From NCBI GenBank assembly GCA_008632985.1, contig QPGO01000292.1:1-64000 (forward strand): a stretch of 64,000 nucleotides of DNA. The letters run 5' to 3'. How positions within the stretch are numbered: the first letter of the stretch is position 1; each line of letters starts with the position of its first letter. The position numbers and the translations under genes are program-made. Under the pieces are notes generated by a model. The model made no database searches. It was not told the DNA's origin and saw nothing but the letters and a program-made list of their open reading frames with translations. This document shows, piece after piece, positions 1-64,000 of the stretch. Source of the DNA: Psammoneis japonica (taxonomy: Eukaryota).

Positions 1-353
1 TTTCTCAAGAAGATACCAAGGCCGCTCCTCGTGTCAACAACAACGACCGAGGCGTGCGAGGAAATAACGTCGGATCTCCTCCTGTTTGGATGAACAACAA
101 CAACGGAGGCCTCATTTATTCTTCGAATCAGCTTATTACACAAGCATCTCCTGCACATGGCCAGCAGTTCCCCTACCAAGAGACGTTATGCCATTTGGAA
201 CTTTGTTTCCTCCCACGGCACTCCCCCACATTATAATCAAGCTGCTTCTTATCATGCGCTCCAGCAAGTTGGAATTCCTCCAGAACAACAACAACACTAC
301 ATGAGAAGTCTAGCAGGAAACATACCAATGCAAGTAAATATGTTCCAACTCGG

Positions 354-6485: not shown

Positions 6486-6761
6486 TGACAGGATTTGAAC
6501 AGGATTTGGGTGCGCGCGAAGTGTCGCGCGCTGTTTAGTTTACCGCGCACAGTTTTGTGTGCTTTAGTTCCGCGCGTTCACGCGCGATGTAGTTTGCTTT
6601 CGAGCCACAAGGCTCACAAGGATGACAACAGCAGCCCGATTGTGCCGACTTGCACGTCTTTCGGCTCCTGCAACGGTCTCTGAGCGGAGACTCATCTGCC
6701 ATTTAGACAGCAGTGAGGAGTCATTGTTTGAATTCTTGCCATTTGCCTTCAATTTCTGTCA
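6486..6761 (+). repeat. 5' LTR of Copia element 1
   Basis: Direct repeat of 12075-12350 with TG...CA ends. Confidence 0.95.
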
Positions 6762-7702
6762 GATTGACAGTCTTGCTCATTGTCAACCCATTGAGCAACC
6801 GCCATCGTTGTTGTTGATTCACCAACGACGCCATTTCAATCCTGCGTGGACCTCCGCATGTGTTCTACATGCGTCGGCAAGTCTGCGCGCATTCAATGCC
6901 AGGGCATCGGCAGGAAGTTAACGTCACCGTCAAGTCTCCTTACCGCTGGACATCTGGATTGATCACACTGCCTTTGATCGCTGAAGACACATGTTCAATG
7001 GTCATGTCCAAGTCCATCCTTGATCAACATCCCTTGACACACCCATTCCTCGGTTAACGGTCAAGAACCCCACATGTTCAAGGATCTCAGTCGCTGAAGA
7101 CATGTGTGTGTGTGCATGTCTTCACGGCCAAGAACCTTTACCCACTCTTCGGACTGCGGTTTTGCCACCACTCTACAAGCACACCGAGTCCATTGCACCT
7201 GATCTGCCCCGGACTGCTGGTGCTCTGCAGTTCTGCCAGGTCCCACGAGGACGACTGTGAGAGCAAGCAGCCGTGATTGCAGCCTACGTTGGGGGCGAGG
7301 GTGCTTTCCTGCGTTTGTTCGTTCGTCCACAGCACCCAACGCCTGTGTCAACTGGCCAGCCTGATCGGGAAATCCAACCGACATAAAATGAGAACGGTTC
7401 AGGGGTCTTGTCCACCTCTAGTCAGCTTACCTGCAGGGGTTTACAACCCGCTACTCCGCTCGTAAGCAACCCAAAGCGCCACTGGCTGCGGGTTCAGACG
7501 TGCCGGCACAACTCTGCGGACCGGACAGGAAGTTTAGCACTTGACAACGAACGGGATAGCAAAGCCCGGCGACTTCTGATTTTAAGACAGTTCAAGATTT
7601 CAAGTCAAGTCCACCTCAAGTCAAGTCTGTTCTCACCCAAGTTTCGAGTCTACCTTCGCTTCCCAACCAGAATTGATTGTCCTGACACCACTTTTGTCTG
7701 CC

Positions 7703-10700
7703 ATGGTTCTCACTCGTCAGCAACAAACCGATGGTTTCGAGCACGTTGTTGGAACCGTGCTTGCCCAAGGTGCTGGGAGTCCTCTTCGTTTGGCTTTGGC
7801 CCAAGACGGCACGGACTCGCATCAGGAACTGTTCACGTTCATGCCGTCCCAAATCGACTCGCTTGAGTACGACAACGGCACTGATGTGATCCCTTTGCCC
7901 CGTGGTCATAAGAACATGTTAGCAGCACTAGTTAGTCTGTACATTGTCAAAGCACACAAAGGTCTTGACGTTGCCAACGACTCCTCTTTGTTCACGCATG
8001 ACGAGTTCCTTGCCCACCGCCTCAGCCCCGACTGCATGTCTTCTGTGTCCATTGGCAGCTCACCCCTTGCACCTCCGCATGTCACCAACCCGACCAAGGC
8101 ACGCGACCCGGTGCGGGACTTCAAGCGAGGCATCAAGCGTGATCCCACCGCTTTCACGGCTCTCAAATCCGACAAGCAGTGGCACACTTGGCACACCTCA
8201 CTTGTGGCACAAGCCCGTGCCCAAGACGTCGAGTGCATTCTAGACTCGTCGTACAAACCGACCAGCCCCGAAGACAAACTGCTCTTTGCTGAACAGCAAA
8301 AGTGCATGTTCGCCGTCTTCGAACGCATCCTTCTCACCGACAAGGGCAAGGCTCTCATTCGCGAAAATGTGGGGTCTTCTGACGCACAGACCATCCACCG
8401 CGCCTTGTCTGAGTGCGCGCTTGCCTCCACCCGTGCATCTGTCGAGTCCTCCACCCTGCTCACGTACCTCACCACCGCACGTCTTGGTGATGGCACTTGG
8501 AAAGGTCCGACCCACGGGTTCATCCTTCATTGGCAAGATCAGTTGCGCAAGTGCGAGGCACTCATCCCGGCCAGTGACCACTTCTCTGAAGGACAGAAGC
8601 GCGTCATGCTCGAGAATGCCGTGCACCCTGTCGAGGAACTCCGTGCTGTCAAGAACCAAGCTGATCAGCATCGTGCGCAGAGTGGCAAGAGCCTCACACA
8701 CGATCAATGCTGTGGCTTGCTCCTCTCCGCGGCAGCTCAGCACGACAGCACGTTTCAACCCAAGACGACACCTCGAGCTCCCCGACGCGCCACACACGCA
8801 CACGACGTCTGCTCCGAGGAACCGTCTGACGATGTGTTCTACGACATTGACAGCGACATTGACGTCCTTCAGGCCAATGCTGCCCACACCCGCGGTCCCA
8901 GCCTCACCGGTGACCAATGGAGACGTCTCCCTCCCGACCACCAACGGATCTGGGATTCGTTGCCCGATTCCTCCAAGGCGATCATCCTTGAGCATTCTCG
9001 TCCGCCTCCCCGCAACCCGCGAGCCAGTGACTGCCATGAGTCTGTTGCGGCCAACCTTCACGACCAACGCCTTGGGAGTGACGGTGATGTCAACTTGTCC
9101 AACACGACTCCTGCTGACTCTGGTGACTCCGCTCCAAATGTGGGTGCCAATTTGGACAATCCCATCATGGCGCACCTCACCAAGTGCAAGTCACTGCCAC
9201 CCGGTGATCTGCAACGTCTGTTGTCTCCTAACCAAGCCCCCAATGCTAGTCGACCGGGGCCATCCGCCGCTTCCTCTGCCCCGCCAGCTTCTGCAGATGA
9301 CATGGAACTCAACGGCCGCACTTGCCGCCGCGTCAACAACCACAATGTCATTTGCTCTGCCTCTGCTCATCGCTCCACACGCACTGGCGCTCTAGTCGAT
9401 TGTGGGGCCAACGGCGGCATTGCTGGCGACGACGTTCGCATCATTGCACGCACCTCTCACCAAGTCGACGTTCAGGGCATTGACGATCATCAATTGGTGG
9501 ACATCCCTGTTGTCACCGCTGGTGCCGTCATTGAGACCCAGCGTGGTCCCGTCATCGCCATCCTCCATCAGTGCGCACACACGGGCAAGGGCAAGACCAT
9601 CCATTCCTGCGGCCAGCTCGAATGGTGCAAACAGGATGTCAACGATCGCTCTGTCAAGGTGCCCAACGGCTTGCAACGCACCGCCACTCCTGATGGCCAT
9701 GTCATCCCCATTGACATCAAGGCCGGCCTGCCTTGTGTTGCCATGCGACCTTACACTGACGCCGAATGGGACACCCTGCCCCCACCTGAACCCATCATCA
9801 AATCTTGCCATGACGACAACCCCATCGATTCTCCTGATGGGGAGATCAGGACACCCAAGATGCCAGTTTTCGATCCGCAAGACATCATTGGACGCACCTT
9901 CCTCATGCAGCCACAAGAGGACGGACAACGCCACAGAGCTCGCATCGTCAAGGCCGTCGAAGACCACGAATGGAAAGTGAACGGCAATCCCGAGCTCACT
10001 GAGTTCGTCTGCTCTGTCAACAATGACGAATGCGAGGAAGTCCTTGCCTGCAATGACATCATGAATCACATTGAGCAAGAAGACGAAGACACTGCTGTTT
10101 GGAAATTTCGACGCATCGTGTCACACGAAGGACCTCTGAAGCCTCACGACCCAACCTGGAAAGGCTCAAGCTACAACATCATGCTTGAATGGGAAAGTGG
10201 GGAGATCACGTCCGAGCCTCTTGCCATCATCGCCAAGGACGACCCCGTCACCTGTGCCATCTACGCACGAGAGAACGGACTCCTCGACACGGATGGCTGG
10301 AAGCGGTTCCGCACCATCGCGAGGCACCAAAAGAAGCTGTTTCGCATGGCCAACCAAGCCAAGCTTCGCTCCTTCCGCACTGCACCTCGCTGCAAGCACG
10401 GATGCGAAGTTCCCCGGAACTGCAAACACGCCATGTCACCAGACGAACGCAACGGCAACCGCAAGTGGGGAGACGCAACTAATCTCGAGATGGACCAACT
10501 CACTCCTCCTGCGGGACACAAGAAGATCCGAGTGCACCTGGTGTGCGACGTGAAACACGACGGTTGCCACAAGGCATGACTCGCAGCCGATGGGCACCTC
10601 ACGGACGTACCCATCGATGGTGTCTGCTCCGGAGCAGTCTCCCTCCGTGGCCTTCGGCTGATGATTTTCCTGGCCGAACTCAACGAGTTGGAGACATGGG

Positions 10701-12030
10701 CCACCGACATTGGCAATGCCCACCTTGAAGCCACCAACAAGGAGAAGCTTTACATTGTAGCCGGACCTGAATTTGGCAAACTCGAAGGACACATCCTTGT
10801 CATCCACAAGGCACTGTGTGGACTGCGCAGCTCCGGTCTCTGCTGGCACGAGCGCTTCGCCGACTGCCTGCGAGCTGAAGGCTTCTTCCCCTGCCGCGCC
10901 GAACCCGACATTTGGATGCGCAGGAACGGCGACCACTGTGAACACATTGCCGTTTATGTGGATGACCTCGCCATTGCCATGAAGGACCCTCAATCTTTCG
11001 TCGACACTCTCACGGAAAAGCACAAGTTCAAGCTCAAGGGTGCGGGACCCATTGAGTTCCATCTGGGTTGCGACTTTTCCCGGGATCCCGACGGAACCTT
11101 GTGCCTGTCTCCGCGCAAGTACATCGAGCGCATGGTCGACAGCTGTGCCCGACTGTTTGGGGAGAAACCCACCACCAACGCCCTGTCACCTCTAGAGAAG
11201 GGTGACCACCCCGAACTGGACACTTCCGAACTGCTGGGACCCGATGGCATTCACAAGTTCCAGTCTCTTGTTGGTTCACTCCAATGGGCAGTGTCCCTTG
11301 GTCGAATTGACATTGCCACGGCCGTCATGTCACTCTCTACCTTCCGAGCTGCACCCCGTCAAGGCCACTTGGATTGTGCCAAATGCGTCTGTGGGTGCCT
11401 CTCCAAGATGCGACACGGTGCTCTCCGCGTTCGCACGGAAGAGCCCGACCATTCGGATCTCCCTGCTCCGGCCTGTGAATGGATGCATTCCGTGTGTGGC
11501 GAAGCAGAAGAGATGATCCCGAAGGACGCTCCACCGCCCCTTGGCAAGTTCGTCACTGCCACCCACTGCGTCGATGCAAACTTGTGCCATTGCATGCTCA
11601 CCGGACGCTCTGTCATGGGAATGCTCCACTTCCTCAACAAATTCCCGGCTGATTGGTTCTCTGAGAAGCAAGCCACCGTGGAGACTGCGACCCACGGGTC
11701 TGAATTTGTTGCCGCAAGGACTTGTGTTGAGCAGATCATCGACCTGCGCATCACCCTGTGCTGCCTTGGCGTCCCGATCCGCAATGTCAGTTGCATGTTC
11801 GGTGACAACAAGTCGGTTGTAGACAGTGCCACCATCCCGCACTCCAAGTTGCACAAGCGACACACCGCACTGTCGTTCCACCGTGTGCGCGAGGCAATTG
11901 CCTCTGGTTGCCTTGAGCTCCACTTCATCGAAGGCTCCCGCAACCCTGCTGACATTCTCAGCAAGCATTGGGGTTGCTCCCAAATCTGGGACCTTCTCCG
12001 CCCCCTCATGTTCTGGAACTTCATTCCATC
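7703..12030 (+). pseudogene. Copia gag-pol remnant (gag, protease, RT, RNase H); integrase core missing
   Basis: ORFs 7673-10579 and 10661-12181 lie in the same frame, separated by TGA at 10577-10579 (HKARL -> HKA*L). No HHCC or DDE motifs between the protease (~9.4 kb) and the region after ~9.8 kb. Confidence 0.85.
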
Positions 12031-12074
12031 CGAAGTCGAATCTGTTTCTGTGACTCCTCAAGCAAACTGGGGAG

Positions 12075-12350
12075 TGACAGGATTTGAACAGGATTTGGGT
12101 GCGCGCGAAGTGTCGCGCGCTGTTTGGTTTACCGCGCACAGTTTTGTGTGCTTTAGTTCCGCGCGTTCACGCGTGATGTAGTTTGCTTTTGAGCCACAAG
12201 GCTCACAAGGATGATAACAGCAGCCCGATCATGCCGACTTGCACGTCTTTCGGCTCCTGCAACGGTCTCTGAGCGGAGACTCATCTGCCATTTAGACAGC
12301 AGCAAGGAGTTGTTGTTTGAATTCTTGCCATTTGCCTTCAATTTCTGTCA
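12075..12350 (+). repeat. 3' LTR of Copia element 1
   Basis: Direct repeat of 6486-6761, followed by the target-site duplication TGTTC. Confidence 0.95.
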
Positions 12351-19246: not shown

Positions 19247-19340
19247 GGAAGGTGGGGCATCGGTCGCCGACGGCATGTTCGAGCCTTTAGAGCATCGAAA
19301 GGGACCAATGCAATTGTCGGCGACCGATGCCCCACCTTCC
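19247..19340. repeat. Perfect 25-bp inverted repeat with a 44-bp spacer
   Basis: GGAAGGTGGGGCATCGGTCGCCGAC (19247-19271) and its exact reverse complement (19316-19340). Confidence 0.9.
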
Positions 19341-20660: not shown

Positions 20661-21013
20661 TTTTGATGGAACACCATGCGATGCACCAATTGGGACACCC
20701 CACTTTTTTGTTCAGCTTCATCATTTTCAGTTCTTCATTTCCTTGGCATTGTGTTTAGTCCAATCACATCTTACATCGACGCCCTGCGGCATCCGTCCAA
20801 CGTCTTGGACGTTTCAATGCGCTTTTCACAGATTTTAATGCGACACAATGAACTGTCCCGCACATTGGTCCCTTCCTTTGGAGTGCCTTGCTTTTGGTGG
20901 TTGCAAGTCGGAATTGGGATTGAGGAGGCCAGCGGGTCACTTTCAATCATCTTTTGCTGCAGTGAGGGACCAGGGACCGCGATTCTGGTGCTGGCTTGAG
21001 TGCATTCAGACAG

Positions 21014-22002
21014 TTGGATAAATGCTGTGTGATGATGCTGTGCACAACACATGCCCAAATGTGTGTGCGGAGAAGGGACTCAACAATTGGCCGAGTGGCA
21101 ATTTCTTTGCCTCTTGAGTTGTTGAGAACCTCCCGCACTCGTTGGGCAGGGTGCAGCATTCTGAGTGGTTATGAGTCTTTGCGCTTCCTGAGGTCGCTGG
21201 TTCGAGTCGGCCTCAAATCCAAGCCTCCTTTTCTTTCTCGGCCTGCCCCTTTTCTGCCCCATCCGGGGTGGGCGGTTGGGCTTCGAACCCACTCCTCCCT
21301 TGGCATTGGCCGGATGCGCCACATGGCGCTAACCCATCCGCCTGCCTGACAGAGGGAGTGCATGGTCAAATTCGTAAGTCCGCCGTGCGGATGCGCCACA
21401 TGGCGACAACCCATCCTGCGACGAGAGGGAGAGTTGGATAAATGCTGTGTGATGATGCTGTGCACAACACATGCCTAAATGTGTGTGCGGAGAAGGGACT
21501 CAACAATTAGCCGAGTGGTAATTTCTTTGCCTCTTGGGTTGTTGAGAACCTCCCGCACTCGTTAGGTAGTGTACAGTGTTCTGAGTGGTTATGAGTCTTT
21601 ACGCTTCCTGAGGTCGCTGGTTCGAGTCGGCCTCAAATCCAAGCCTCCTTTTCTTTCTCGGCCTGCCCCTTTTCTACCCCATCCGGGGTGGGCGGTTGGG
21701 CTTTGAACCCACTCCTCCCTTGGTGTTGGCCGGATGCGCCACATGGCGCTAACCCATCCGCCTGCCTGACAGAGGGAGTGCATGGTCAAATTCGTAAGTC
21801 TGCCGTGCGGATGCGCCACATGGCGACAACCCATCCTGCGACGAGAGGGAGAGTTGGATAAATGCTGTGTGATGATGCTGTGCACAACACATGCCTAAAT
21901 GTGTGTGCGGAGAAGGGACTCAACAATTGGCCGAGTGGCAATTTCTTTGCCTCTTGGGTTGTTGAGAACCTCCCGCACTCGTCAGGCAGTGCACAGCATT
22001 CT
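21014..22002 (+). mobile_element. Tandem TRIM-like array (LTR-internal-LTR-internal-LTR, 420-bp period)
   Basis: 149-bp repeats at 21014-21162, 21434-21582 and 21854-22002. The internal 271 bp starts with GGTTATGAG (tRNA-Met-type primer site) and ends with the purine tract GAGAGGGAGAG. GACAG flanks both ends (21009-21013, 22003-22007). Confidence 0.8.
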
Positions 22003-22007
22003 GACAG

Positions 22008-25000
22008 TGTCAGATGCGGGGTCGCTGTTCGAATGTCACAGGATCAAAGGCACGCAAGTGCTCACCGAGTTTGTCGCGTGCCACCCGTCACACGCACTGA
22101 GCACTCGTCTCAAGGCCTGCTGGGAGAGCCCAGAAGTAGCTGAACGGTCTGATGCGATGGACGAATCAGCCTTCTTTGACACCCACGAGGAACTGGAACC
22201 TCTCGACGACCAGAAGCATTTCTTTGACGCTCTTGAGGACTTCATCCCGGATTTCTTCCGGTTTGACGAGCTCTGTCTGCCGCATCATGTCGTGGACACT
22301 GCCCATTTTCAAGATCCTGTGGAGCTGTTGGAGGAAGCAAGTGTTGGACCAGTCGTCCACAACACCTCCACCATCCAACTGCTCACCGGACAATCACAAG
22401 CCGACCTCCTTGCATCCGATCCGCAGGCACTCATCGGTCTGTCGGACGAGGCTCTCACGGTCGTCATGGATGCTGGTGCCACGCCAGCTGTTGCCCCCGA
22501 CAAAGATGATTTTACGGGGCCTGTGACTGCTCCCAAGAAACCCTTGCAGATCAATGGGATTGCCAACGGTCTTGCCATCCAGGGTGCCGGTCCGGTTGCG
22601 TGGGTGTTCACAATGCCGAGTGGGGCTACCACCCAACTGAACACCATGGCATGCCACGTCCCTGGAGCCCGTCAGCGCCTGCTGTCGCCTCAACGCCTCT
22701 TCAACGAAGAGAAGGGGGCACGTGGGAAGTGTGAGGGCGATGAAACCACTTTCCGTTTACACATTGACGGGATGGGCAAGTTGGCCGTGCCATGTCATCC
22801 ATCAAGCCACTTGCCTGTTGCGTCGATGACCAAGGGCGTGTCTGCCGCTCCTCAAGTGAACCTTCAGATCCTCAACGAGGAGAATCAAAACCTCACGGCA
22901 GGCCAAAAGCTTCTTCTCGAAATGCACGCCCGTTTTGGCCATTTGAACTTTGGTCGCGTCCAAGCACTTCTCCGCGCAGTTCCGTTCCTTTCGAACCATT
23001 TCAAGTCCGCAGCGAAGTGTGACCACCCAAGATGCGAGGCACGCAAATGTGCTAAAGGTCATGGACGCTCTCTTGGATCTACTCACAAGTCGACAGTCCC
23101 TGAACGCGACGGGGCCCTTCGAGCTGACCATCTTCGACCGGGTCAGGCTGTCAGCGTTGATCATTTTGAGTCGCGCCTTTTGGGCCGCACCTTCGACTCT
23201 TATGGCAAAGCCACGTCCAAGCAATTCAAGGGCGGTTGCATCTTTGTCGACCACGCCTCTGGCTATGTCCAGGTCGAGCACCAACTGGGTTTCTCCGCTG
23301 TTGAGACGATGCGCGCGAAGCAAGCGTTTGAGAAACATGCTTTGGACCACAGGGTCATCGTCCAAGATTTTCTTGCCGATGGTGGCGCTTTCAAGGCCAA
23401 CGCTTTTGTACAACACACACGAGAACATGAACAACGTCTCCGTTTTTGTGGAACCAATGCCCATCATCAGAACGGCGTCGCAGAGCGGGGTGTCCGCAGC
23501 ATCTCCAACATGGCGAGAGCGATGTTGCTTCATGCATCAATCCACTGGAAGGGGGGAATTGACAGCTCCCTGTGGCCCATGGCAGTTTCTTGTGCCACGC
23601 ACATCTACAATGTCACCCCAAATTCCAAAGGACATTGCCCAGCGGACATTTTCACTGGTTCGACAGTGCCAAGACATCGGTTGCGCGACATTCACACATG
23701 GGGATGTCCAGCGTACGTGCTTGACCCGACCCTCGCTTCCGGGAAGAAGCTCCCGCGTTGGGAGCCTCGCACTCGTCGCGCTTTGTTCGTGGGACTCAGT
23801 GCCATCCATTCCAGCGAGGTTCCTTTGGTCCTCAATCTTCAAACTGGAAGTGTTGCACCTCAGTGTCATGTGGTCTTTGACGATCTCTTTACTGCCGCAC
23901 CATCAATTGAGAGGGAGACGGATCCACCTGATCACTGGGAACACTTGTGCCTCAACCAATCGACATGCATCCCTCTGGAGAAGGATCAGGCAGTTCATTC
24001 ACACGATGAGTGGCTCACCCCTCCAGAGCGTCAACGTAAAGAACGAGAACTAGCCAGAGCAACACGCATTCGCGGGCATTTTGAGCCTGCTCCATCGATT
24101 GCTGTGCCGGATTCACCCACTTCTCGCGACGACGTCACCGATCGAGTCGCACCTGCGACTCAGCAGCCAACGCCACCAGTCCCACCTGCGACTCAAACTC
24201 CTACAGACTCTACGGACTCTACGCCAATTCAGCCACCTGAACCTCAAGATGGTAACGGACTTCCGCCACCCGAAGCACCAACGGAACCAACAGCTCCTCC
24301 CCCAGTCGAGACACCTCCCATGACGAATCCAGAGGGAGTGCCAGGGCTGCGACGGTCTTCACGGTCAACCAAGGGACAGTTCAACTCTGCCAAGTTTGTA
24401 GATGAGGTCTGCTTCAGCTCCGTCGAGGAAATGCCGCTGCCGATCAGACACGAGGCTCAACTGGCGTATCTGGCGACTCTCGAGACGGATTTGGACAGTG
24501 GTGCCATCAATGTCGGCGATCCACGAGCCCACGCAGCTAGCAAGAAAACCAAGGACCCTGACACGCCTTCGTTGCACAATGCTCTGAAAGGTCCGGACGC
24601 CGACGAATGGATTGAGGCGATGAAAATTGAAGTCAACGCACTCATGCATCGTCGAGCCTGGAAAGCAGTCGAGCGTCAGCCGCACATGAATGTACTTCCA
24701 GGCACATGGGCACTAAAGCTCAAGAGACTCCCAGATGGAACCCCTCTCAAGCACAAGGCCCGATGCTGCGTCCGCGGTGATTTGCAGAAAGAAGGAGTCG
24801 ACCACTTCGAAACCCACGCGCCGGTTGTGCAATGGTCCAGTGTCCGACTCATGCTCACTGCGGCATTAAAGGAGGGATGGACTGCACGACAGGTGGACTG
24901 TGCCACAGCCTTTTGCCAAGCTGATGTCGCCGAGGAAGTCCATGTAACACCGCCGAAGGGATTTGCACCAAGGTCGGGACTCAACATGGTTCTCAAACTT

Positions 25001-26250
25001 TTGAAAGGACCACACGGCCTAAAACAGTCTCCCAAGGGCTTCTACGAGAAGTTGCGAGCTGGTTTAACCGAGCGCGGATGGGTGCCTTCAGCCACAGATC
25101 CCTGTTTGTATTTCAAAGAGGGCATGATGTGTGTGGTGCACGTCGACGACACCGTTTTTGCTGGAGCTTCAGCTGAAGCTCTAGAAGCCGAAATTTGCAA
25201 GTTAGGAGTCTCCGACGACGAACATCGCCACGCACTTGAACTTAGAGACGAAGGAGAAGTCGGTGACTTTCTCGGCATCAAGATCGAAAAGCTCTCCGAG
25301 GGTCGATTTCTACTCACTCAACCCGGTCTAATTGACAAGGTCCTACGTGCCGCACAGATGCAGGATTGCAATGGAGCATCTACTCCAGCTCTGCCTGCGG
25401 CCATTGGTGCTGACACGGACGGGCTACCTTTTGATGAACCCTGCGATTATCGCTCAGTTGTTGGAATGTTGATGCACTTGGCAGCGAACAGCCGGCCAGA
25501 CATTGCACATGCCACACATCAAGTGGCTCGATTCTCGTTTGCGCCCCGAGCGTCCCACGCTGCTGCAGTGAAGCGGATGCTCCGATGCCTCAAAGCAACT
25601 GCTGCTGAAGGTCTCATTCTCAAGCCTGCGCAAGATCATCGAGTTGATTGTTGCGTCGATTCTGACTTTGCGGGGTCATTTGGTGTGGAAGATGGTCAAG
25701 ACCCAGTTTCTGTCAAGTCCAGGACTGGATGCCTTGTCTACTGCGCCGGCTGCCCGCTGATCTGGGTGTCCAAGCTGCAGACTCTTGTGGCATTGTCGAC
25801 TGTGGAAGCGGAACATGTCGCACTTTCTCAAGCCATGCGCGATCTCATCCCCATTCGTGAAGTTCTCAAGGAGCTCAACCACCACGCATTCGGAAAGTCT
25901 GACCGCCAAAACCCCATCACGACCCACTCCAAGGCTTTTGAGCTCGCAACCCAAGGCACCGATGACTCGCCTGTAGAGCAGAATGTCCCACCTACGTCCG
26001 TTGTGTACGAAGATAACTCCGCGTGCCTCAAGTTCGCACGTGTGCCCAAGTTGTCTCCGCGAACCAAACACATCGGTGTCCCGCACCACTGGTTTGGGAC
26101 TAAAGTCGAACAATTGGAGATCGACATCCAACCTATCAGCACTCTAGAGCAACTAGCCGATCAGTTCACGAAGGGACTACGGACCGATGCGTTCCGTACG
26201 GCTAGAAAGGCTCTTATGGGCTGGTAAGCTCTCTCGGTTGAGAGGGAGAG
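22008..26250 (+). mobile_element. Second Ty1/Copia (CoDi-like) retrotransposon: pol (protease, integrase, RT, RNase H); gag and 5' LTR not found
   Basis: Open frame to 26227 with VMDAGAT (protease), HARFGH (zinc finger), VSVDHF/LADGG/NGVAER (integrase), VHVDDT (RT) and VDSDFAG/EDN/LADQFTK (RNase H). Purine tract GAGAGGGAGAG at 26240-26250; a putative 3' LTR follows. Confidence 0.9.
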
Positions 26251-29743: not shown

Positions 29744-30496
29744 ATGAAACGGGAAAATGACTGGGCGACCGACTTTTTTGAGAGGCAACAGCAAATGATG
29801 CAGCTGCATGGGCAAGCGATGTACCAGCAACAGCAAGAGTTTGAGAAACACAAACGCAAGTGCCAACGCACCGATGACCTGGAAATTGAGTTCATGATGA
29901 ACGCGAGCACTACGCCAACACCCAACAAGCGTTTCAAGTCGAATCACCCATCCGAAACTAAGTCGAACGAGTTCAACGCAACCTTTCCTTCGGCAAAGTT
30001 GGATTGCCCAGCACCATTCAGGCCGAACGAATCGCCCGTTTTCAATGTGAGTCGAACGAGTTCAATGCAACCTCACCTTTGGAAAAGTCGGATGGCCCAG
30101 CCCCATTCAAGCCAAACGTGTCTCCCGTCTTCAATGTGAATCTTGATTCTACGAAGAAGAAGATCAGCTTTGGAAAATTTCACACTAGAGGAAGCTTGAT
30201 TCCCACCACAAGTTTCGCATGAATGACTATGGTGTTGATACGGTCCAAATGAAAAGGAAAATGAATCGAACGAGAAGACCGGCGTTGCCGCTCGGAGTTC
30301 CAAAATTGTCTTTGAGGAAGTTGCATTTGCAGAGGGGGATATTGTGTACTACACCAAGGATGACAAACAGTACAAGGCCAAGATCCTTGAGGCTCACAAG
30401 GACGACAAGCTCAATCCGTATTACTTTGTTCGTGTCTTCAAGCTCACCGGGCCCGTCGACAAGGACACGGAATCCAAATACCTTTCCGCCTTTTAG
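29744..30496 (+). CDS. Hypothetical protein (frameshifted) with short internal repeats
   Basis: Gln-rich start, repeated PAPF(R/K)PN.SPVFNV, and a coding-like C-terminus GDIVYY...AKILEAHKDD..PYYFV. Confidence 0.35.
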
Positions 30497-46500: not shown

Positions 46501-49420
46501 CTCATTGAAATCAATGACTGTTTGTTGATGTCCCTGGACATTTGTTGGCATGCATGGACATCCACTCATTTTTGGTCACACCCATTTGTGATGAACAGGT
46601 GTGATTTGTGTTGAATGGCAATGGCCCATCACAAATGAATTTGTGTGCCGACACTCACACTCACACACGCTGTCTGCAACATTGTCCGTTGGTCCGACCA
46701 CAAGACAATTCATGGAAATGGGCCTCTGATGATGTGTGCACCTGCACAGCAGGAGTGATTTGCAGGCAGAAGCAGGAAAGCTGTCATCAGCTCCTTCTTG
46801 ATTGAAAAAATCCAAGCAGGATGGTCAAGGGTGCATGTGTGTTTCTGCAGGTCACAGAGACCTCCTTTCTCTGACTGGAAAGCTGCAGAGGGCATTTCCC
46901 CCTGCAGCTTGACAACCCACAAGTCGAGGACAAACGTGCACCACTGCCTCTCCACATGGCTTGCAAGGATGGTTGGAATTGCCAGCCAAAAGTGGAGTCA
47001 CTTCAGAGCTGTCCCTGCACATTTGAGATTGCACAGGATGCTCTGCAAAGGTGTGCAAACCAAACCATGAATTTCCAGTTCACTGCTGGGCCTTTCAAAA
47101 GTGTGCCAATCAAAATTCTCTTCTTGTTGCCATGCACCCACACACTCAAAAAGTGCCCAACTCAGTTGAGGTTTGCAGCATGGGTTGCTGGCACACTGAA
47201 GCTGCCTCTGGAGCATGCAAAACACAACAAAAAAGTCTTTGAATGTCTGGCATGGTGCATTTGTCAGAGGGATCTGGCTTTTCTGTTGCACCCAATGTTT
47301 GAGGACAGAGGCACTCAAGGCAGCAGTGAGTGCACTTGCTGTGGCTTTTCAAGCATTTTCCAGCCCAAGTGGACAAAACTTGGGGGTCCAACTGGACATT
47401 TCCATTGCATGTTGCATGGCTTTTGTGGATGACATGCACTCAAAAGATCAGCTGGCAACCTTTGTTGGACAAGCACCCCCCCTCACTTTGAGGACAAAGC
47501 AGACAGAAAATGAGTGGCTGAAGCTGCTGAGAAGAATGAGATGTTGTGCACTTGCCAGCATCAGGCAAAGATGACACATCCCTGTGCACAGCTCTGCTGC
47601 ACAAGATTTGAGACATGAGAACAAGCAGAAGAAAAAGGAAGTGGCCAATCCACGTGCAGAGCACCAAAGCTGCTGCAACAGCAAAAAGAGCTCAGTGTGT
47701 TGCAGCCAAGAGAAAATGAGGCACTTTCACTCTAAAGACATGTTCAAAGATGACAACTTTGCATGGGACAAGAATGATGAGAACAAATTGATCCCACACT
47801 TCTCGGATTGATGGCAAGAGAAGTTCTGCACTCGCATTGGTGCTGCCCCTGGGATTGTCCAGTGGTGCTGTGCACCACAGGCAGCAAGGAAACAGCCCAC
47901 AGCCAACAAGAAGTGGTGTTGGTGCAACAGCTCTGCACTCTGGTGCACTCAAAACCACTGCTGCTAGCCCACACATGTGGCTTGTGCAGCACTGCTGGTG
48001 GCACAACTCTTTCATGTGGAGCTCAAGATCAATCGCCAAGGGATTCCAGCAATTGCGTGAGCATGAAGGCTTGCAAAGCTGACCACCAATCCCCCATGGT
48101 CAGCCCAACATGTGCTCATTGGAGAGCTGTTTGAGGGCACGCCACTTGGACAAGGAGTTGACGTTCTTGCCATTCCAGACAAGGCAGTGTGTGCCAACTG
48201 TCTGGAGGGAAAGCATCAAGGCCACAGCAAGATGCAGCAAGGAAGAAGCTGTGCAGCTGGGGCCTTCTTCTGAGATTGCTGTGATGTCTCATGTCAATTC
48301 AAAAATTGCAGCACATCACAAAGATGCCTGCGCACTGTGCTGATTTGTCTCAACATGCCAGCAATGAGAGACAAAAAGTGCAGGAAGCACCAAGTTTTTG
48401 GGAAATGTCTTGTTTCCATTTTTTGGCTCAGAACATGCAAGATGGTGTCCTTGTGCAGCTTCCAGCAGGAGGAAGTCAAAGATTGCAACAAAGCATCAAG
48501 CATGCAATGATGCTGGTGTGAGCAAAGGGGGTGAGAAAACCATGCCACAGTTTCAAATCATGATGTGCAGTGCCGACGTCATTTCGTGCATTGTTGAATG
48601 CCTTCATTGAATGACTTGTGAGTGATGTTTCCATTTTGGAAGGGCCAAAGAATCTCATTTGTTTCTGAGCTTCCAAGCTGCAATCACAGCAAATGTCCAG
48701 TGTTTTGGAATCCATCCAAGAACATGCAAATTGGCTGCAGATGGGCTCATTTGGTGTGGGGTCTCCCTTTTGACATGGAGAGGCTGCACTCAGCTCAGAC
48801 TGGCATTCTTGGAAGCAGTTGCCATTGCACCCTTCCTCACACCATGCTCTTGTGGCCATCACATCCTGCAACAAAGCTGATGGTCTTGTTTTTTTTTTTT
48901 GTGCATGACAAGGGCAGAAGATCTGGGTGAGAAATGCCTTCAGTTGGCAAAGGGGTTGTCAGAGACCCCCCAAGCACAATCAAGAACGTTGGTGCTGGTG
49001 GAGCTGGGGTGCTGACATCCCCGGGTGACAGATCTTCCAGGTGACTGCAGCTGCAGAATTGCCACGGAGGAGGCATTGCACTCTCTGGCCAATTTCCCCC
49101 CCCCCAAACAATCTTTTTGGGTGGTGGAGTCCTGGCTGACAACGAATCAAGTCGGGTCCCGAGAACGGCCACCACTTGGTGTCCCGGTTCTCTGGGGTTC
49201 CTCAGACGGGAACCGGCGAATGGTGCACCGGCGAATGGGAAAAGCGTTAGAATTTCAAACGAAATCCGTTGAACTGCACAGTGCTGACATTTTTATGTCA
49301 CCAAACGGAAGCAATAAGTGGTCATGTGTCGATCATGCTAGCCCGGGTCCAGCACCCATGTCTGCCTCCTCGGGCGTGAGGATGCGTTCACCCTTGGACC
49401 AGAATGTGGTGACAAAATAG
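43520..49420. other. Heavily degenerated, TpA- and CpG-depleted block, probably a DNA-transposon relic
   Basis: Only about 15-20 TA dinucleotides seen in ~5.9 kb. Coding-like traces remain (AFAH.LLKNNCDAW, KGWLPKANKFF), but no domain I can name. Confidence 0.7.
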
Positions 49421-49551: not shown

Positions 49552-50346
49552 TTAGAAGCCTGCAGCAACAGTTGGATCCTGAGGAGGAGCACCCTCCATA
49601 CCAAGTGGCATGGCCGCCGCAGCGGCTGCAGCCGCAGCTGCTGCAGCCGCAGCTTCCTGTTGAGCAATCAAAGTAGCGGGACTCGGCTCTTCTTTCGGTT
49701 CCATAATTGTAACAACATCATCTAAAGGAATCTTTGGTCCCTGTACACCGCTAGGATCATGCGGAAGCATGATACTGACCTTAATTCCAATAACACCCTG
49801 ACGCATAAGTACGTGACGGACGGCAGTATCCGTGTAAACCTGACCAGCATGACCAGTCTTGATCATGTACCCGTCACCAAATTTCATTGCCTTAGCACGC
49901 TGTCCTCGCAGTTTTCCAGTCACAATAACTTCGACACCCTTGGCGGATGCTTCCATGACGAAACGGACCACACCATAGCAAGCACGGCGAACAGCCAATC
50001 CTCCGAGAAGCTTGAACTTGAGAGACTCAGCTTGTGCCTGCGCACAGAGTCCACGGTTCTGCACACGCTCCGCGTAAAGCTCGACGGCTCCGTCGGCAAA
50101 GTTGAAACGCTTCTGCACGACACTCGTGAGTTCACGAATTCGCTGTCCCTTTTCTCCAAGGACAGACTGGGTGCGAGTAGCACGAATAATGATTTCCGTG
50201 CGGTGAGGGGTGGTCCTCACCTCGACGCCAGCGTAACCATCTTCGGCCAATTCAGAAATCAACAACTCGTTGAGCTCAGCGTTGAAGACACCGTCAGCGA
50301 CAAACTTGCGCTTGGTGGAGAGACGACTGCGGCGAGTAGCAGACAT
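49552..50346 (-). CDS. RPS3: 40S ribosomal protein S3 (uS3)
   Basis: [52 protein letters not shown] and GKLRGQRAK. Confidence 0.97.
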
Positions 50347-50889
50347 GTTGGAGAATCTGAGTTTTGAAAAAAGCGAGAAAGAAAAAGTGAGCAGAAGAAC
50401 CCGGAATGAGCAAAAGCACCGGGAGATTACGCTGATAGAAATTATTAACGACTCGTTTCCGATCTTTGGCTCTCTATCTGACACCAGTACGATCATTTGA
50501 CTTCGTTACGACAATTGCATCAAAAGATATTCGCTTGCGCTTGTTTCGCCATGGTCAACGTACCAAAACACTTGCTTTCGAACGACGGAATGATGTGCGA
50601 CACTGAGCTTGTCGAGGTTGTTACGTACTTCTTCAGTACTTTTTGTAGCATGTAGAAGTAGTACCTATACGAAGTAGAAAATCTCCAGTATTGCGGTAAG
50701 TTGAACGGAATCTGGAGTCTTAGAAGTGAGAGTTTCTCTATTATTTTTAAAAATATTGCGGTGAACGGGCAGACGAAAGCCCGTGGAAGAACTTACTAAC
50801 TAACTCGAACCTCGAACGAAATCTCGATGTGGTTTTGAGTTTTGATCGTCGTCATAGTCGATCACAAAAAACTTGCTGGTAAGTACACC

Positions 50890-52330
50890 ATGGTGATGAT
50901 TCGCTGCTCTGACATTGTTGCTGTTGTTTGTAAAGCACAATGCCATCACCGCAGCACTTCAAGAAACCAGCACATCACAACGAGGTGGGGTTGTCTTCTT
51001 TATGTGGTGAGCGGCGGTGTTTGTTTTGAGTTGCTGAATGGGTTTGCAAGTGGACTTTGGCACAGCCCACACAAAGCAATGTCACTCACCATGTCATTGC
51101 TTTTTCTGTTTTTCTCCTCCTTCTCACACTCATCACATGCATGGCCTCCTCTTTGTTGGCATGACACGTCAAAACAAACAACAGCGCACCCCCAGGAGCA
51201 ACAAGAACAAACCGCTTTGCTGCACAGCATTGTCATTGCAGCAAGTCCCAACATCATGGTTCCTGTTGTTGCACTGTTCAGTGCTGTTGCATTGACACCC
51301 AAGTTGCGCCCTTCCTCCTTTCTCAGGTGCCTCTGCCGTTCCTCTGGCGGCCACTCTGAAAATGGAAAAGTGACACAAGGTGTTCACTTGGGTCAAACTC
51401 TGCCTGGGACTGGCCTGTCAGTGCCAATGATTTGCTCAATGCAAACACCACAATCACTGTCTTGCAGTTTTGAGGTCTGGATCCCTGCTTGCACAAAGCA
51501 GTCATTGTCATGGCTTGTGAGAACTTGCTCTCCAAGCACAAAGGAAGCACTCCATTTTTTGGGGCTGCTCGACCTTCCAATGAACTCAAACTGGCATGTC
51601 CAGAAGTTGGCATGCTTTCTCTGCAGCCACACAAATGTCCCCATGAAAACTGAGCCAATTGTCATTTGGAAAGCAATGGACAGCACACCTCAACTCACCA
51701 TCTGGTTTCTCAAGAAGCAAGCTGACCACTGAGAAATCATCAAGGTGATTGTTGGAGCGGGGCTCATCACAACTGTGACTGCCTTGAAAAAGAAATCAAA
51801 GAGCCATTTTCAAGAACTTCCATCAAATGCTGCTTTTAGCTCTTCTTTAAACCAGTCCACAATGCAGCCAAACAGCAAGCTGCAATTGGTCCAGCGATCC
51901 AAACAAGTCACAACAGACCCCCCTTTGGGCAAAGAGATCAACAACGCTGAAACAGAGCTTGCAAAACAGTTGCTCCTCCCCAACATCCACCTCCCCAACA
52001 TTGAGGGGTGGTGACACTCATGATTGGTGGAGTCAGTGATGTGATGACTGCTCTCCAGCCCACCACACAACCCACTGCACTGTGACTGGAAATGTCGCCA
52101 ATGACACCATTGTGGCATCCCCCCTGGAGCAGATCTGTGTGGCCTTTTCCACTTTGACCACCATCCAGCAGCATTGCTGCCAGTCCCGAACCAGTCCCAA
52201 GCCAGTTTGTTCAACGAGTCCTCGGGCAGTTGTGACCTCAGCACCCACCTGCACAGCGTTGAGACCAACATTGAAGGTCTCCATCAGTCCCTGGACACAT
52301 CTGATTGCAACAGCAAAACAATGCGGACCA
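50890..52330. other. Short TpA/CpG-depleted degenerate relic between host genes
   Basis: Same TG/CA-rich composition as the other old blocks, with normal composition on both sides. Confidence 0.7.
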
Positions 52331-60643: not shown

Positions 60644-63600
60644 GCGGTTGCCACCGCTTTGCTCATGCGTGCTTCGTATCGGGGATGGACGAGCGCGCTC
60701 CTGGAGTGAAACGGTGGGTTCAAACCACTGGTCGCGCGCTCTCTTCTAAAGTGATGTAAATCTCATGGAATGCATTGTGTGCTTGGAGTGGAGATGGCTT
60801 TACTAGCGCTGTGAAAGGTTTTCTCCCTACCCAAAGCTGGACGGTAGGGCCAGAGGGCGGGAGAGGTGGGAGCGATTAAACTGTGCTGACGACCGTGGCT
60901 TGTCTTTGTCGATCTTGAAAGAATGAGACAGACCGGTGACCGAAGAAAAACAACAACCAACCCTTGCAGCACGTTCAACGTGCGTACGTGGTTCAACAGG
61001 TAATGGGTCTTCTCCCCGATTCTGGCACTGGATGAGGACAGCGGTTGCCACCGCTTTGCTCATGCGTGCTTCGCATCGGGGATGGACGAGCGCGCTCCTG
61101 GAGTGAAACGGTGGGTTCAAACCACTGGTCGCGCGCTCTCTTCTAAAGTGATGTAAATCTCATGGAATGCATTGTGTGCTTGGAGTGGAGATGGCTTTGC
61201 CAGCACTGTGAAAGGTTTTCTCCCTGCCCAAAGCTGGACGGCAGGGCTTCCAGCGCCACCCACTGATGTGCAGGCGGTGCAGCAGCTGGCCAAACATGTC
61301 TTGGGATTGGGCGGGTGGGCCCGTCTGGAGGGCTGGTGGAGCACTGTCATGGGGCGATGGGCACTTCAGCATTCGGGTGAAGCACGAAATTGCCCCCAGC
61401 GAGCATGGCTTGCGCAAATCCGCGCATGGTGGGCTCGGCTTGGAGGTGCAGATGGCGCAGCATCTCGTCAGAGCGCCAACGGCCTAAGAGACGGATTGGG
61501 TCGGTGTCGACATGGGCACACAGCAGTGCCGTTGTTCCTGCTGCACGAAGGCAGCGGGATGAGACATCGGCCGGTGTGAAGCCCAGGTTCTCGGGACCCA
61601 GGGCAACAATGGCGGTGCGGAGTGCCGACGTCATGTCAGCAGGGGAGACGGCGTGCCACCTGTCGTTTTCAAAATGCACCCCCAGGGGGGTGTCGGGTTG
61701 CGCTCCGCAGGTGCGCAAGTGGACAACTCGGCGGACGAGGGCCCTGGTTGGGCAAAGGTCTGGGTGGCCTGACAGGCCGTGCGCAATGACTTCGCCGCGC
61801 ACTCCATTTTTCTGGGCAGCAAAAGTGAGGGAGCTGAGGGTGGTGGCGAAGAGGGCAGGGGCTGCAGTGGTGAAGAGGTTCAGATGCACTCCGCCCGAGG
61901 CCAAACGAAGGTCTGCCAGGCAAAACGGAGTGGTGTCAGATGGTGTGGCTGTGCACTCACCCGGGCAAAGCAAAAAGAAAAAGGCGATTGCGATCATGTC
62001 CGCAATGGCCCGGGTGCCGGCGCTGTTGCCAAGGGCGGCGGCGTGCAAGATCCAGAGGAGGACGCTGATGGGGACTGGTTTGACACGATCGGGCGGCGGA
62101 TCCTGTTTCTTGTAAAAATGGATTTGGCGGGTGAGACGGAAATCCAAGCCGCCCTGGGGTGTGAGACGTGGGTCCGCGGACCCCATTGCAGCGAACATCT
62201 GCCCAACCGACCGCAAGGCATCCTCAGCGGTGCGTGCCCGGACGGGATTGCCTCTTGGTGCGATGACGCTGGTGTGGAATCGATGGAGGAACACTTGGAG
62301 GAAGAGGATGGGATTGCAGGTGTCTTCGAGAAATGGACTGATGGCCAGTTGGCGGCAAAAGTCGATCCAAAGGTGCCAGTGGGTGTCGGCGGCGGAGGCT
62401 CGGGAAGTGGCAATGCCACGCTGCACTGCTTCCTGCGCAGCGCCGAGATCACGTAAGAACGCAGTTCGGGTGGCGGGGTCCACAGACGCCAAGACTTGCT
62501 CTGTGGGCAAGTGGAGTTCAAATGCGAAAGGAACGCGACGTCAGACAAGTGTTGCAAGCGCGAAGCGTCGTCACCCGCTTGGTTCCAAGTGCCCGGGTGG
62601 CAATCATGGAGGCCCATGTAACGGTGTTGGCGTTGATGGTGCGCTTGAAGCCGGAGGAGCTTTGAAGCCGGTTTGACTGTGGCAGCCGATCCCTTGCATT
62701 GCCAGCACATGGTGCCAAGGTTGTCGGCACGGTTGAGGTTGGTGCGCTCGCGGATGTCGCACGTGTCAGCAGCTGCGCAGGTGTGGACGATGCTGCCAAC
62801 CAGTTCGAGGTCGGTGTTGGTGATGGGTCCGTGTGGATTCTCGTGCGTGGCAAGCAAGTCGGAGATGTCCTTGGGAAATCGCAGGCGCCACGCAATGGGG
62901 CCTGCGTCACGTTGGATGCGACGTCGGCCAGAGGAATGGCGCAGCTTGGCGGCTCGTGGGACTGCGGTGGGTGTTGGTGCGATCACCCCGCCGGCCCCGT
63001 GGCCGGCAGCGTCGTGACAGCCATGAACAGTTGGAGGCAGTGGTGCGAGCTCTTGGATGCGGACGGGACATGAGTCCAGAGTCTGGCGCAGATCACGGAA
63101 ATCGTCCAGTGTGGAATGTGCGTTGGCCACAAGTCGGATGCGTGAGTCCGGTGCAGTGTGGCGGAGGGCTTCCTGCATTCGGAGAACAGGCCTCGAGAGC
63201 CGGGTGTGGCTGCCGCGAGTGAACGCAGTTCTCCCAGGAGTTTCTGACAATCCTGAACGGCAACGCGTTTGCGTGAGCGGGGGAAATCCTTGTGGAGTGT
63301 GTCGTGTGGTCGTGCACGCCGGCGAGGAGCAAGTCGAAGTGTCATTGACAAGGTGTCAATTAACCAGCCTAACACTTCTTTCTGTGTAGACCATGTGGCG
63401 TCACCCTTGCGGAGCTTTTTGACTGATGCGGGTTCTTTGCGGGCGGCAACGTCGTTGGAGTCCGTGGGGCAGAAAACATCGTCGATGGCGTGCAGCAACA
63501 CGCGATGTGTGTTTCTCCGGGCTGCGGCGGACCCCTGCGCGGCGCCGATGAAGTCATCGACGTATGTGTCAATGCAAGCGAGGCGCCGGCGGCGGCTTGG

Positions 63601-64000
63601 GTGTTGAGGTGTGGGTCCGGCGACGTTGGAATCGGCGCGGCAATTGTTGCCGGTGGTGGAGTTGGCTGGGGTGCATGGGTTGGCACCCGACTGGATGCCA
63701 ATTGCTCCAATGGGTGTGGTGGTGCCGTTGTGGCGCGCACTGGCTGTAAGTCAGCCAGGTCTGCTGCCGTCTCGGCAGCGGCGCTGAAACACGGTGGCGA
63801 ACAGGCCCATCCCACAGGGAGCCGTGTGGGTGTGGCCACCAATGGGGGTTCTCCCGGCAGGTGTGGGAAAACCACCCCGAGTCGTTGGGCGTCATCGGGG
63901 TTAAGGTGCATCCGATGGAAGCCATCAGCGAGGTCGACTTTCACAAGGTAAACCCGGCCGTGCGATGGATTTGCCAGCAAGATGCGGCGCAGCAAACGGT
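60644..64000 (-). mobile_element. Tyrosine-recombinase retrotransposon with split direct repeats (Ngaro/PAT-like); runs off the window end
   Basis: RT fragments (KVDLADGF, TYVDDFIG, KEVLGW), RNase H (HDAAGHGAGG, DLEL, DN, DDASR), recombinase ORF, and 207-bp direct repeats at 61041-61247 and 60644-60850 separated by 190 bp. Confidence 0.88.
61347..62510 (-). pseudogene. Tyrosine recombinase of the Ngaro-like element, catalytic residues mutated
   Basis: FFFLLCPGEC (expected LLRPGEY), QKNG, LRAAG and LGRWRSDEMLRHLH (expected RYLH). Frame open for 387 aa. Confidence 0.85.

Follow-up and report, generated by a model that had tools for sequence, protein, structure and literature searches.

Loss of conserved tyrosines from open reading frames in TpA-depleted retrotransposons of the diatom Psammoneis japonica

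In a 64,000-nucleotide stretch of the Psammoneis japonica genome (contig QPGO01000292.1 of assembly GCA_008632985.1, positions 1 to 64,000 of the forward strand; hereafter the window), retrotransposon open reading frames (ORFs) have lost most of their conserved tyrosines, including a predicted nucleophile and the Tyr of a polymerase motif, without any stop codon being created by these changes. The elements concerned are a putative tyrosine-recombinase retrotransposon at the end of the window and two Copia elements, Copia1 and Copia2. The residue changes are very probably the coding read-out of a mutation process that is confined to transposons, acts after insertion and converts the dinucleotide TpA to TpG or CpA. 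In this process TpA steps in transposon domains would have an A:T pair replaced by G:C, as TA>TG or TA>CA depending on which strand is hit, and a slower decay of CpG to TpG or CpA would run in the same domains. Every tyrosine codon contains TA, and therefore erasure of TA removes catalytic tyrosines: TAY codons would become Cys (TGY) or His (CAY), with loss of the recombinase nucleophile and of the Tyr of the reverse transcriptase (RT) motif YVDD. A T-A step at a codon boundary would similarly give rise to changes such as Thr to Ala in the protease motif DTG. TAA and TAG would be destroyed and no sense codon turned into a stop, such that frames would stay open in enzymes that have been inactivated.

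The last gene of the tyrosine-recombinase retrotransposon is an open frame of 387 amino acids on the minus strand (61347..62510), predicted to encode a Cre-like recombinase. An earlier note on this DNA had read His for its nucleophile, Cys for its box-I Arg, HVDD for the YVDD of Copia2 and DAG for the Copia2 protease motif DTG, and all four readings were borne out by the codons, none of these residues being present at its site in the aligned relatives. Searches with the recombinase returned 790 relatives at E <= 0.001 (46-69% identity), and 80 of the 120 listed were aligned. The nucleophile codon, located within WRSDEMLRHLHLQ, is CAT (His353; 61452..61454, minus strand), a TAT>CAT change of TpA to CpA, and the position is Tyr in 79 of the 80 relatives, the sole exception being a Cys in relative P0002. 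The box-I Arg codon is TGC (Cys182; 61965..61967, minus strand), within FFFLLCPGEC as compared with LLRPGE in the family, and is Arg in 80/80 relatives. The conserved Tyr of LLRPGEY, present in 76/80, is replaced by Cys186 (TGC at 61953..61955, minus strand) through a TpA>TpG change. Across the ORF, 28 of 192 strongly conserved columns have been replaced, with 5 changes of TpA type, 10 of CpG type, 4 other transitions, 6 transversions and 3 multi-step changes. Both Arg182>Cys (CGC>TGC) and Arg79>His (CGC>CAC) are CpG transitions.

Copia2 is a single ORF of 1442 amino acids (21899..26227, plus strand) with protease, integrase, RT and RNase H regions; 514 relatives were found at E <= 1e-10 and 54 of the 120 listed were aligned. 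The RT motif reads V-H-V-D-D, with His1081 encoded by CAC (25139..25141, plus strand) through TAC>CAC, again TpA to CpA, and this position is Tyr in 54/54 relatives. In the protease, the TpA that spans the two codons of GAT ACT has become TpG (GAT GCT, 22469-22474), which places Ala at position 192 (GCT at 22472..22474, plus strand). Relatives carry Thr (31/54) or Ser (23/54) at this position and never Ala (0/54). The first 12 of the 23 Ser-carriers rank from P0146 down, suggesting that the closest relatives of Copia2 carry Thr. Asp191, Gly193 and all of the checked Asp/Glu columns in the integrase, RT and RNase H are invariant among relatives and intact in the window copy; the codons of these catalytic Asp/Glu residues cannot be hit by TpA erasure. 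Replacement has occurred in 106 of 631 strongly conserved columns of Copia2, comprising 38 changes that fit a single TA step (22 TA>TG and 16 TA>CA), 3 CpG changes, 8 other transitions, 32 transversions and 25 multi-step changes.

The loss of tyrosine extends over the recombinase, Copia2 and Copia1. Columns with at least 70% agreement among relatives were compared for retention of Tyr and of all other residues (Fisher test), and the relatives themselves were scored leave-one-out. Of the 44 conserved Tyr in the three proteins, no more than 8 survive and 28 are now Cys or His, in line with the earlier proposal that TA loss kills transposon enzymes, which fails for the box-I Arg of the recombinase, since that change is a CpG and not a TpA transition. 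In Copia2, 5/28 Tyr are kept compared with 520/603 other conserved columns (p = 8e-15), and Tyr has been changed to Cys (8) or His (9) in 17 cases; the mean for the 54 relatives is 0.54 and the maximum 3. The recombinase keeps 1/5 Tyr and 163/187 other columns (p = 0.0017). In the ORF of Copia1 that covers RT and RNase H (10580-12181), tested against the matched segments of 40 of 150 listed relatives, those spanning most of the query, 2/11 Tyr are kept and 8 are Cys or His, compared with 127/146 other columns kept (p = 2e-6); the relatives show a mean of 0.30 such changes and a maximum of 2. Mean Tyr retention among relatives is 0.86-0.90. In the column analysis conserved Cys was kept in 11/12 cases and conserved His in 20/22.

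The same regions have a distinctive dinucleotide composition. Among eleven TA-poor runs of 300-bp windows, the ratio of observed to expected TA lies at 0.05-0.21, compared with approximately 0.4-0.76 in most gene regions, and TG and CA rise to 1.3-2.0 in the TA-poor runs. Ten of the eleven lie at or adjoin transposon-derived DNA. The runs are located at 5901-7400, 8001-12200, 12201-19600, 19701-21400, 21701-24200, 24301-25000, 25401-26100, 43301-49400, 50801-52300 and 60901-63500, with the eleventh at 29601-30300 (ratio 0.247), and their sequence is complex rather than of low complexity. The domain over the recombinase element extends over 60901..64000 and has a TA ratio of 0.107 (measured over 60901-63500) with a nearly normal CpG ratio of 0.91.

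It could be argued that these are native features of lineages that are naturally poor in TA and Tyr, with active relatives that carry His, Cys or Ala at the sites in question; such relatives are also what the earlier note named as its refutation, and the alignments contain none. The recombinase family is indeed natively GC-rich, relatives reaching 0.55-0.64 GC and many equalling the window copy, and the Copia lineage lacks a Pfam rve match even in relatives (0/8). Nevertheless, His353 and Cys182 each occur in 0/80 relatives of the recombinase and His1081 and Ala192 each in 0/54 relatives of Copia2. Moreover, the TA ratio lies at 0.38-0.88 in 80/80 relatives of the recombinase element from metagenomes, against 0.107 in the window copy; as many of these relatives are equally GC-rich, the high GC of the element is native and its TA loss is not. 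In addition, contigs that represent other copies of the recombinase-element family (public run X1) read A at 61454 in 3/3 cases, giving TAT at the nucleophile codon. A native origin of the changes is thus scarcely credible.

Comparison of repeat copies dates the changes relative to insertion. The long terminal repeats (LTRs) of Copia1 (6486..12350, plus strand; 276-bp LTRs at 6486-6761 and 12075-12350, 96.4% identity) differ at 10 positions, equivalent to 7 sites, at which TA is set against TG or CA twice, TG against CA three times and CpG-type differences are seen twice. A 420-bp tandem repeat (21009..22004, plus strand), upstream of and overlapping the Copia2 ORF, has 24 differing positions that are nearly all TA versus TG or CA, and its copies hold 4, 12 and 2 TAs. 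The two 207-bp terminal repeat copies of the recombinase element, B1 (61041-61247, inside the mutated domain) and B2 (60644-60850, outside it), have 97% identity and differ at 6 positions, 5 of which read TA in B2 and TG or CA in B1; B2 retains 7 TAs and its twin 2. Repeats that were identical when made now differ almost only at TpA-type sites, and hence the change came after insertion. Changes of Tyr to Cys, which require A>G on the coding strand, and of Tyr to His, which require T>C there, are equally frequent (14:14) over the recombinase, Copia2 and Copia1. This balance and the differences seen between LTRs and between tandem-repeat copies point to a change made in DNA, on both strands and after insertion. 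Among the 33 best-supported variant sites of the X1 copies, the window has TG or CA where other copies have TA at 7 sites with 0 in reverse, and TG or CA where they have CG at 11 sites with 3 in reverse; 5 sites are TG-versus-CA double differences and 7 are of other kinds. A further 142 variant places lie outside this split. Overall, the between-copy changes comprise 156 transitions and 26 transversions.

These comparisons bear directly on an origin at the level of RNA, in which ADAR-like editing of A to inosine, with a preference for 5′ U, would act on retroelement transcripts and be fixed by reverse transcription. All three elements replicate via RNA, and ADARs favour U on the 5′ side of the edited A, according to the part of a preprint on Bigelowiella natans considered here (Mettrop et al., bioRxiv 2026, 10.64898/2026.01.13.699255). 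However, edits of sense RNA would produce Tyr to Cys only, and Tyr to His is equally frequent. A single insertion of Copia1 has LTRs that started out identical and now differ at TA sites, as do the copies of the tandem repeat, and one 207-bp terminal repeat is mutated while its twin, 190 bp away, is not. RNA editing is therefore a very improbable source of the signature.

The open frames follow from the nature of the change itself. Enumeration of all codons in all flanking contexts demonstrated that TA>TG and TA>CA make 0 sense-to-stop changes and remove TAA and TAG, so the earlier statement that such changes rarely create stops can be strengthened to never. By the same enumeration, the sole route to a stop through CpG decay is CGA>TGA, and mutation of the type seen in repeat-induced point mutation (RIP) makes stops from CAA, CAG and TGG. 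In simulations on 3945 intact codons from two relatives, 85% TA erasure amounted to approximately 279 hits, changed approximately 181 residues and removed 85% of Tyr, with 0 stops in 200 runs; an equal number of random changes gave approximately 9 stops (range 3-16) and RIP-type changes approximately 44. TpA erasure cannot make stops, and frames would thus stay open while enzymes are inactivated. In the window, TAA and TAG together number 229 per 59,772 triplets in the depleted zones versus 1,218 per 68,172 elsewhere, and TGA is about equal (1,255 in the zones versus 1,266 elsewhere). The earlier claim that frames stay open is true of the 387-residue recombinase and the 1442-residue Copia2, and does not apply to the pol gene of the recombinase element, which lies in three frames with two frameshifts.

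Ordinary neutral decay of dead elements has also to be considered, whether driven by an overall AT-to-GC bias or by GC-biased gene conversion, without any TpA-specific process. Frameshifts and truncation give further grounds for regarding the elements as dead, and part of their divergence is not of TpA type, as this explanation would have it. Yet A>G or T>C changes in Copia2 number 7 outside TpA versus 38 at TpA, and TA ratios of 0.00-0.05 in complex, non-repetitive sequence are beyond the reach of a context-free bias. Furthermore, random changes would give the approximately 9 stops per 3945 codons seen in simulation, and the 1442-codon ORF of Copia2 has 0. Such decay is accordingly a most improbable account of the pattern.

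Several results weigh against TpA erasure as the explanation of the changes, or limit its reach. More than half of the Copia2 replacements (57/106) are transversions or multi-step changes, representing ordinary divergence or decay, and in the recombinase the CpG-type replacements (10) outnumber those of TpA type (5), with the Arg182 knock-out among the former. Copia1 retains YVDD, which suggests that a hit at any single site is a matter of chance. The gain in open frames is modest: per 1000 triplets, stops drop from 36.4 to 24.8, and the depleted zones, which make up 47% of the window, hold 23 of the 42 ORFs of at least 200 codons. With regard to the direction of change, ancestral states were taken from consensus and sister copies and not from a rooted tree, and the TG-versus-CA double differences could derive from ancestral CG as well as from TA. 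The X1 data may come from the window's own source sample and show sister copies, not independent support. Finally, some activity might persist in an HVDD-type RT or a DAG-type protease.

As judged from their sequences, the enzymes of the window copies are almost certainly inactive, and the recombinase copy, without its nucleophile Tyr and box-I Arg, is almost certainly a dead member of its family. RVT_2 matches (E 6e-35 for Copia2 and 5e-20 for Copia1) place both Copia elements with the Ty1/Copia retrotransposons. The earlier note had proposed profile alignments as a check, and the Pfam scores of the unaltered proteins reveal the decay: Copia2 has the lowest RVT_2 score of nine proteins (121.4 bits versus 125.2-153.9 in 8 relatives), as it does for SH3_retrovirus (24.5 versus 29.5-38.3), and the Pol_BBD and gag_pre-integrs matches found in 8/8 relatives are lost. 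The absence of an rve match is a family trait and is unusable as a read-out of decay. Phage_integrase gives no match to the recombinase ORF or to two relatives. The same note regarded elements such as Copia2 as looking intact and probably dead. An open ORF is indeed no sign of life here, although Copia2 does not look intact beyond its open frame: it is a pol-only fragment, aligning to residues 758-2100 of a 2100-residue relative, and no gag or LTRs were found for it even by relaxed tblastn and word-7 blastn. The pol of Copia1 is open save for one in-frame TGA (10577-10579). The Copia1 protease (8900-8960) reads V-D-C-G-A-N, and Copia proteases usually have Ser or Thr at the position of this Cys.

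The assignment of the recombinase depends on structure prediction. No Pfam match, including Phage_integrase, was obtained for the window ORF or for two relatives; a profile of 81 family sequences searched against Protein Data Bank (PDB) sequences found no recombinase, and hhalign against P1 Cre returned a probability of 0.3%. An AlphaFold (AF2) model built on the 81-sequence alignment has a mean confidence (pLDDT, predicted local distance difference test) of 89.8, and Foldseek matched it to Cre (E 3e-6, template modelling score (TM) 0.57-0.72). In VIA-align the best Cre match has Z 17.0 and a root-mean-square deviation (rmsd) of 3.9 over 269 residues, aligning model residues 22..347 with Cre 25..324. 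Cre occupies each of the top 19 rows (Z 14.5-17.0, rmsd 3.6-4.6 over 262-279 residues); below it come, at Z 11-13.6, integron integrase, XerH, Tn1549 Int and lambda Int, and then type IB topoisomerases. From these fold matches, to which the link is confined, the modelled family clearly appears to belong to the tyrosine recombinase superfamily of the Cre/XerD/lambda Int type.

The likeness to Cre of phage P1 thus concerns the whole-protein fold and a near-equal catalytic spacing. Family residues R182, K234, R319, R322 and W345 are each present in 80/80 relatives and, with Y353, are spaced 52/85/3/23/8, compared with 28/88/3/23/9 for R173, K201, H289, R292, W315 and Y324 of Cre, residues that were confirmed to be present in the P1 cre product and whose catalytic role is established. 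There is also a local likeness of motif (LLRPGE in the family, LLRIAE in Cre). Unlike Cre, the family has Arg in place of His289, no link was found at the level of sequence, and the window copy is without box-I Arg and Tyr. Y353 is the predicted nucleophile by motif, spacing and aligned range rather than by residue-by-residue superposition, and model segment 338-356 is of low confidence (pLDDT below 50). In relative P0002, a protein from a metagenome contig that is 67% identical to the window recombinase, 4/5 conserved Tyr are Cys or His and the nucleophile is Cys, pointing to the same damage in a related element outside the P. japonica assembly.

Upstream of the recombinase in the direction of transcription is the pol gene with RT and RNase H regions (62177..63998, minus strand), cut by the window end and traced in its three frames by tblastn with the ORF2 of intact relatives. 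Its two frameshifts lie near 63176 and 63601, where other copies in X1 have one extra base (after 63176) and two bases fewer (at 63601). The RVT_1 match in the window is weak (E 0.0062), and that of the relatives' ORF2 (E 3.8e-5) falls below the Pfam cutoff. Relatives are approximately 5.9 kb in length and carry ORF1 (700-740 aa, no Pfam match), ORF2 (approximately 870 aa) and the recombinase ORF, and the window holds the last approximately 620 residues of ORF2 and then the recombinase. This order, an RT gene followed by a recombinase gene in units of approximately 5.9 kb, would be consistent with the DIRS order (Ngaro/PAT-like). The 3′ terminal repeats (60644..61247, minus strand) comprise B1 (207 bp), A2 (60851-61040, 190 bp) and B2 (207 bp), and B2 lies approximately 300 bp from the stop of a pyruvate kinase gene. 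Loose ends of other copies in X1 fall at 60841-60848 and 61042, both borders of A2, and peak depth lies over 60763-61125. The B1-A2-B2 arrangement would be a split direct repeat in the style of the DIRS order, with the 5′ end of the element lying beyond the window. Of five relatives' contigs examined, two (loci L064 and L011) close on themselves through identical ends of 127 nt, forming units of 5919 and 5937 bases; an assembler closes an element in this way when it has split direct repeats or is circular.

The borders of the mutated domains do not track the ends of the recombinase element or of Copia2; TA loss in Copia2 ends near 26100, approximately 130 bp before the end of the ORF. Such borders suggest position or chromatin state as the target rather than sequence homology. 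A 1.2-kb direct duplication (37628-38789 and 42170-43343, 94% identity), which brackets a hydrolase gene and an amine-oxidase gene of the host, is without TA depletion and has 77 differences of mixed kinds, thereby serving as a control in normal DNA; duplication alone does not seem to trigger TpA erasure.

Strong CpG loss (0.05-0.4 of expectation) is found only in windows that have also lost TA, and it lags behind TA loss, CpG being 0.85-1.0 of expectation where TA is already approximately 0.1. CpG decay is the footprint of cytosine methylation. The process resembles TpA erasure in that a self-complementary dinucleotide is converted to TG or CA in the same domains, and it explains both Arg182>Cys and Arg79>His; unlike TpA erasure, it can make a stop (CGA>TGA) and is the slower of the two.

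The chemistry of TpA erasure would most readily be the deamination of adenine to inosine, the leading idea by analogy with the Bigelowiella preprint. TA is self-complementary and T>C and A>G are consequently indistinguishable, which allows for a different chemistry with the same signature: the T of TpA may be modified to 5-hydroxymethyluracil (5hmU) by a TET/JBP-type enzyme, as a silencing mark, and occasionally mispair with G, or a methylated adenine at the palindromic TpA may be deaminated, by analogy with 5mC at CpG. The confinement of strong CpG decay to TA-erased domains would fit both processes being directed to the same silenced, modified chromatin. Dinoflagellate transposons are enriched in 5hmU, which aids their silencing, and older work cited in the same source reports that T is replaced preferentially in TA and TC (PMC11572971, as far as the portion considered goes). 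Against this, the TA/TC preference was not recovered in another species, according to the part considered of a further study (PMC11071213), it is an assumption that 5hmU or N6-methyladenine (6mA) is mutagenic at such a rate, and the Bigelowiella authors, in the portion of their text considered, favour an ADAT2-like adenine deaminase, albeit without direct proof (10.64898/2026.01.13.699255). A modified-base chemistry is on balance rather unlikely, and adenine deamination is retained here as the working idea.

The nearest described system is that of the chlorarachniophyte Bigelowiella natans, in which de novo A:T>G:C mutation at TpA only has been reported in integrated giant-virus and virophage DNA, and in which coding sequences of low TpA are enriched in RT and DDE domains (10.64898/2026.01.13.699255; these and the following comparisons concern the portion of the preprint considered here). 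The P. japonica changes are alike in being almost only A:T>G:C at TpA, with TpG or CpA as the product depending on the strand, and in being limited to foreign DNA; here too the transitions are restricted to TpA and occur on both strands, with transposon zones hit and a ribosomal protein S3 gene spared. They differ in host (a diatom as against a member of the Rhizaria), in target (retrotransposons as against viral insertions) and in that only the end state is seen as against de novo mutation. Depletion is also fuller in the diatom, with TA ratios of 0.0-0.2 versus 0.45 in B. natans, and the accompanying CpG decay of the diatom domains is no part of the Bigelowiella report. The terms tyrosine, stop codon, flanking, trinucleotide and diatom are absent from the main text of the preprint, to which the term search was confined. 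A full-text literature search found the TpA-erasure signature only in this preprint and nothing for diatoms.

Other forms of hypermutation share some of these properties. RIP, known from Neurospora and other ascomycetes, introduces dense, inactivating transitions into repeat DNA on both strands after insertion, converting CpA and TpG to TpA and lowering GC. The diatom pattern is similar in that dense transitions are limited to repeat or transposon DNA, on both strands and after insertion, but TpA is destroyed rather than made, and no stops arise compared with approximately 44 per 3945 codons in the RIP simulation. RIP was rejected as the process at work, given the destruction of TpA, the unmutated state of the 1.2-kb duplication despite its 94% identity, and the sparing of one 207-bp repeat copy. 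In vertebrates, APOBEC3 proteins convert C to U on minus-strand cDNA before insertion, resulting in strand-pure G>A changes and in stops through TGG>TAG. Context-dependent hypermutation that leaves dead retroelement copies is common to both systems, whereas the diatom changes are both-strand, post-insertion and without stops.

It is common practice to read an open frame as evidence that a transposon copy may be active, and in this genome it is no such evidence: the dominant mutation process cannot close frames and yet removes most Tyr, catalytic ones among them. Diatom transposon annotations, gene predictions and counts of 'intact' elements would as a result be inflated. That Tyr is lost and no new stops appear follows directly from the TpA process, itself barely described. 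A count of Tyr-to-Cys/His changes provides a simple test for TpA erasure at the protein level that works without sister copies, and it was this count that flagged P0002. A type of TpA mutation so far described in a single preprint, which concerns an unrelated alga, is here extended to the retrotransposons of a diatom and placed alongside CpG decay in the same domains. More speculatively, diatoms may carry a dedicated DNA-editing defence on silenced chromatin, homologous to the Bigelowiella process and old within the stramenopile, alveolate and Rhizaria (SAR) supergroup, that strips out all Tyr codons along with two of the three stops, and so disarms Tyr-dependent transposon enzymes (recombinase nucleophile, RT YxDD) and leaves long frames open; this is a tentative idea, and doubtful as it stands. 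If it were true, gene finders and transposon annotators would miscall disarmed elements as intact genes.

Three of the TA-poor zones (12201-19600, 43301-49400 and 50801-52300) have TA ratios of 0.00-0.08 with CpG at 0.05-0.4 in complex sequence. Five long ORFs scanned in these zones gave no match at the Pfam gathering cutoff and one weak sub-threshold match. The zones are presumably older relics in which decay of both TpA and CpG is further advanced.

The context of surviving TAs in the depleted zones (179) was compared with that in the rest of the window (1420). TTAA and CTAA/TTAG are approximately three-fold enriched, and ATAT, ATAC/GTAT and ATAG/CTAT are five- to twelve-fold depleted (chi-square p = 2e-18), hinting at an effect of the 3′ neighbour with T favoured and A disfavoured, in a contrast that sets transposon zones against genic DNA and is confounded by sequence type. 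Approximately 20 polarised events between repeat pairs, read by eye rather than by scripted count, show no preference for 3′ T, and 3′ A is rare among them.

The window as a whole is gene-dense eukaryotic sequence. An amine-oxidase host gene (40166-41740) has named relatives in diatoms only, with a best identity of 62%, in the genera Nitzschia, Seminavis, Cylindrotheca, Pseudo-nitzschia, Fragilaria, Epithemia and others, and Fragilaria crotonensis is the source of the named Copia relatives. The ribosomal protein S3 gene (49552-50505) has a normal TA ratio of 0.54-0.60 and lies inside the 1.4-kb gap that separates the strongly TA- and CpG-depleted zones 43301-49400 and 50801-52300. The second copy of the 1.2-kb duplication ends right at the start of the first of these zones (43301).

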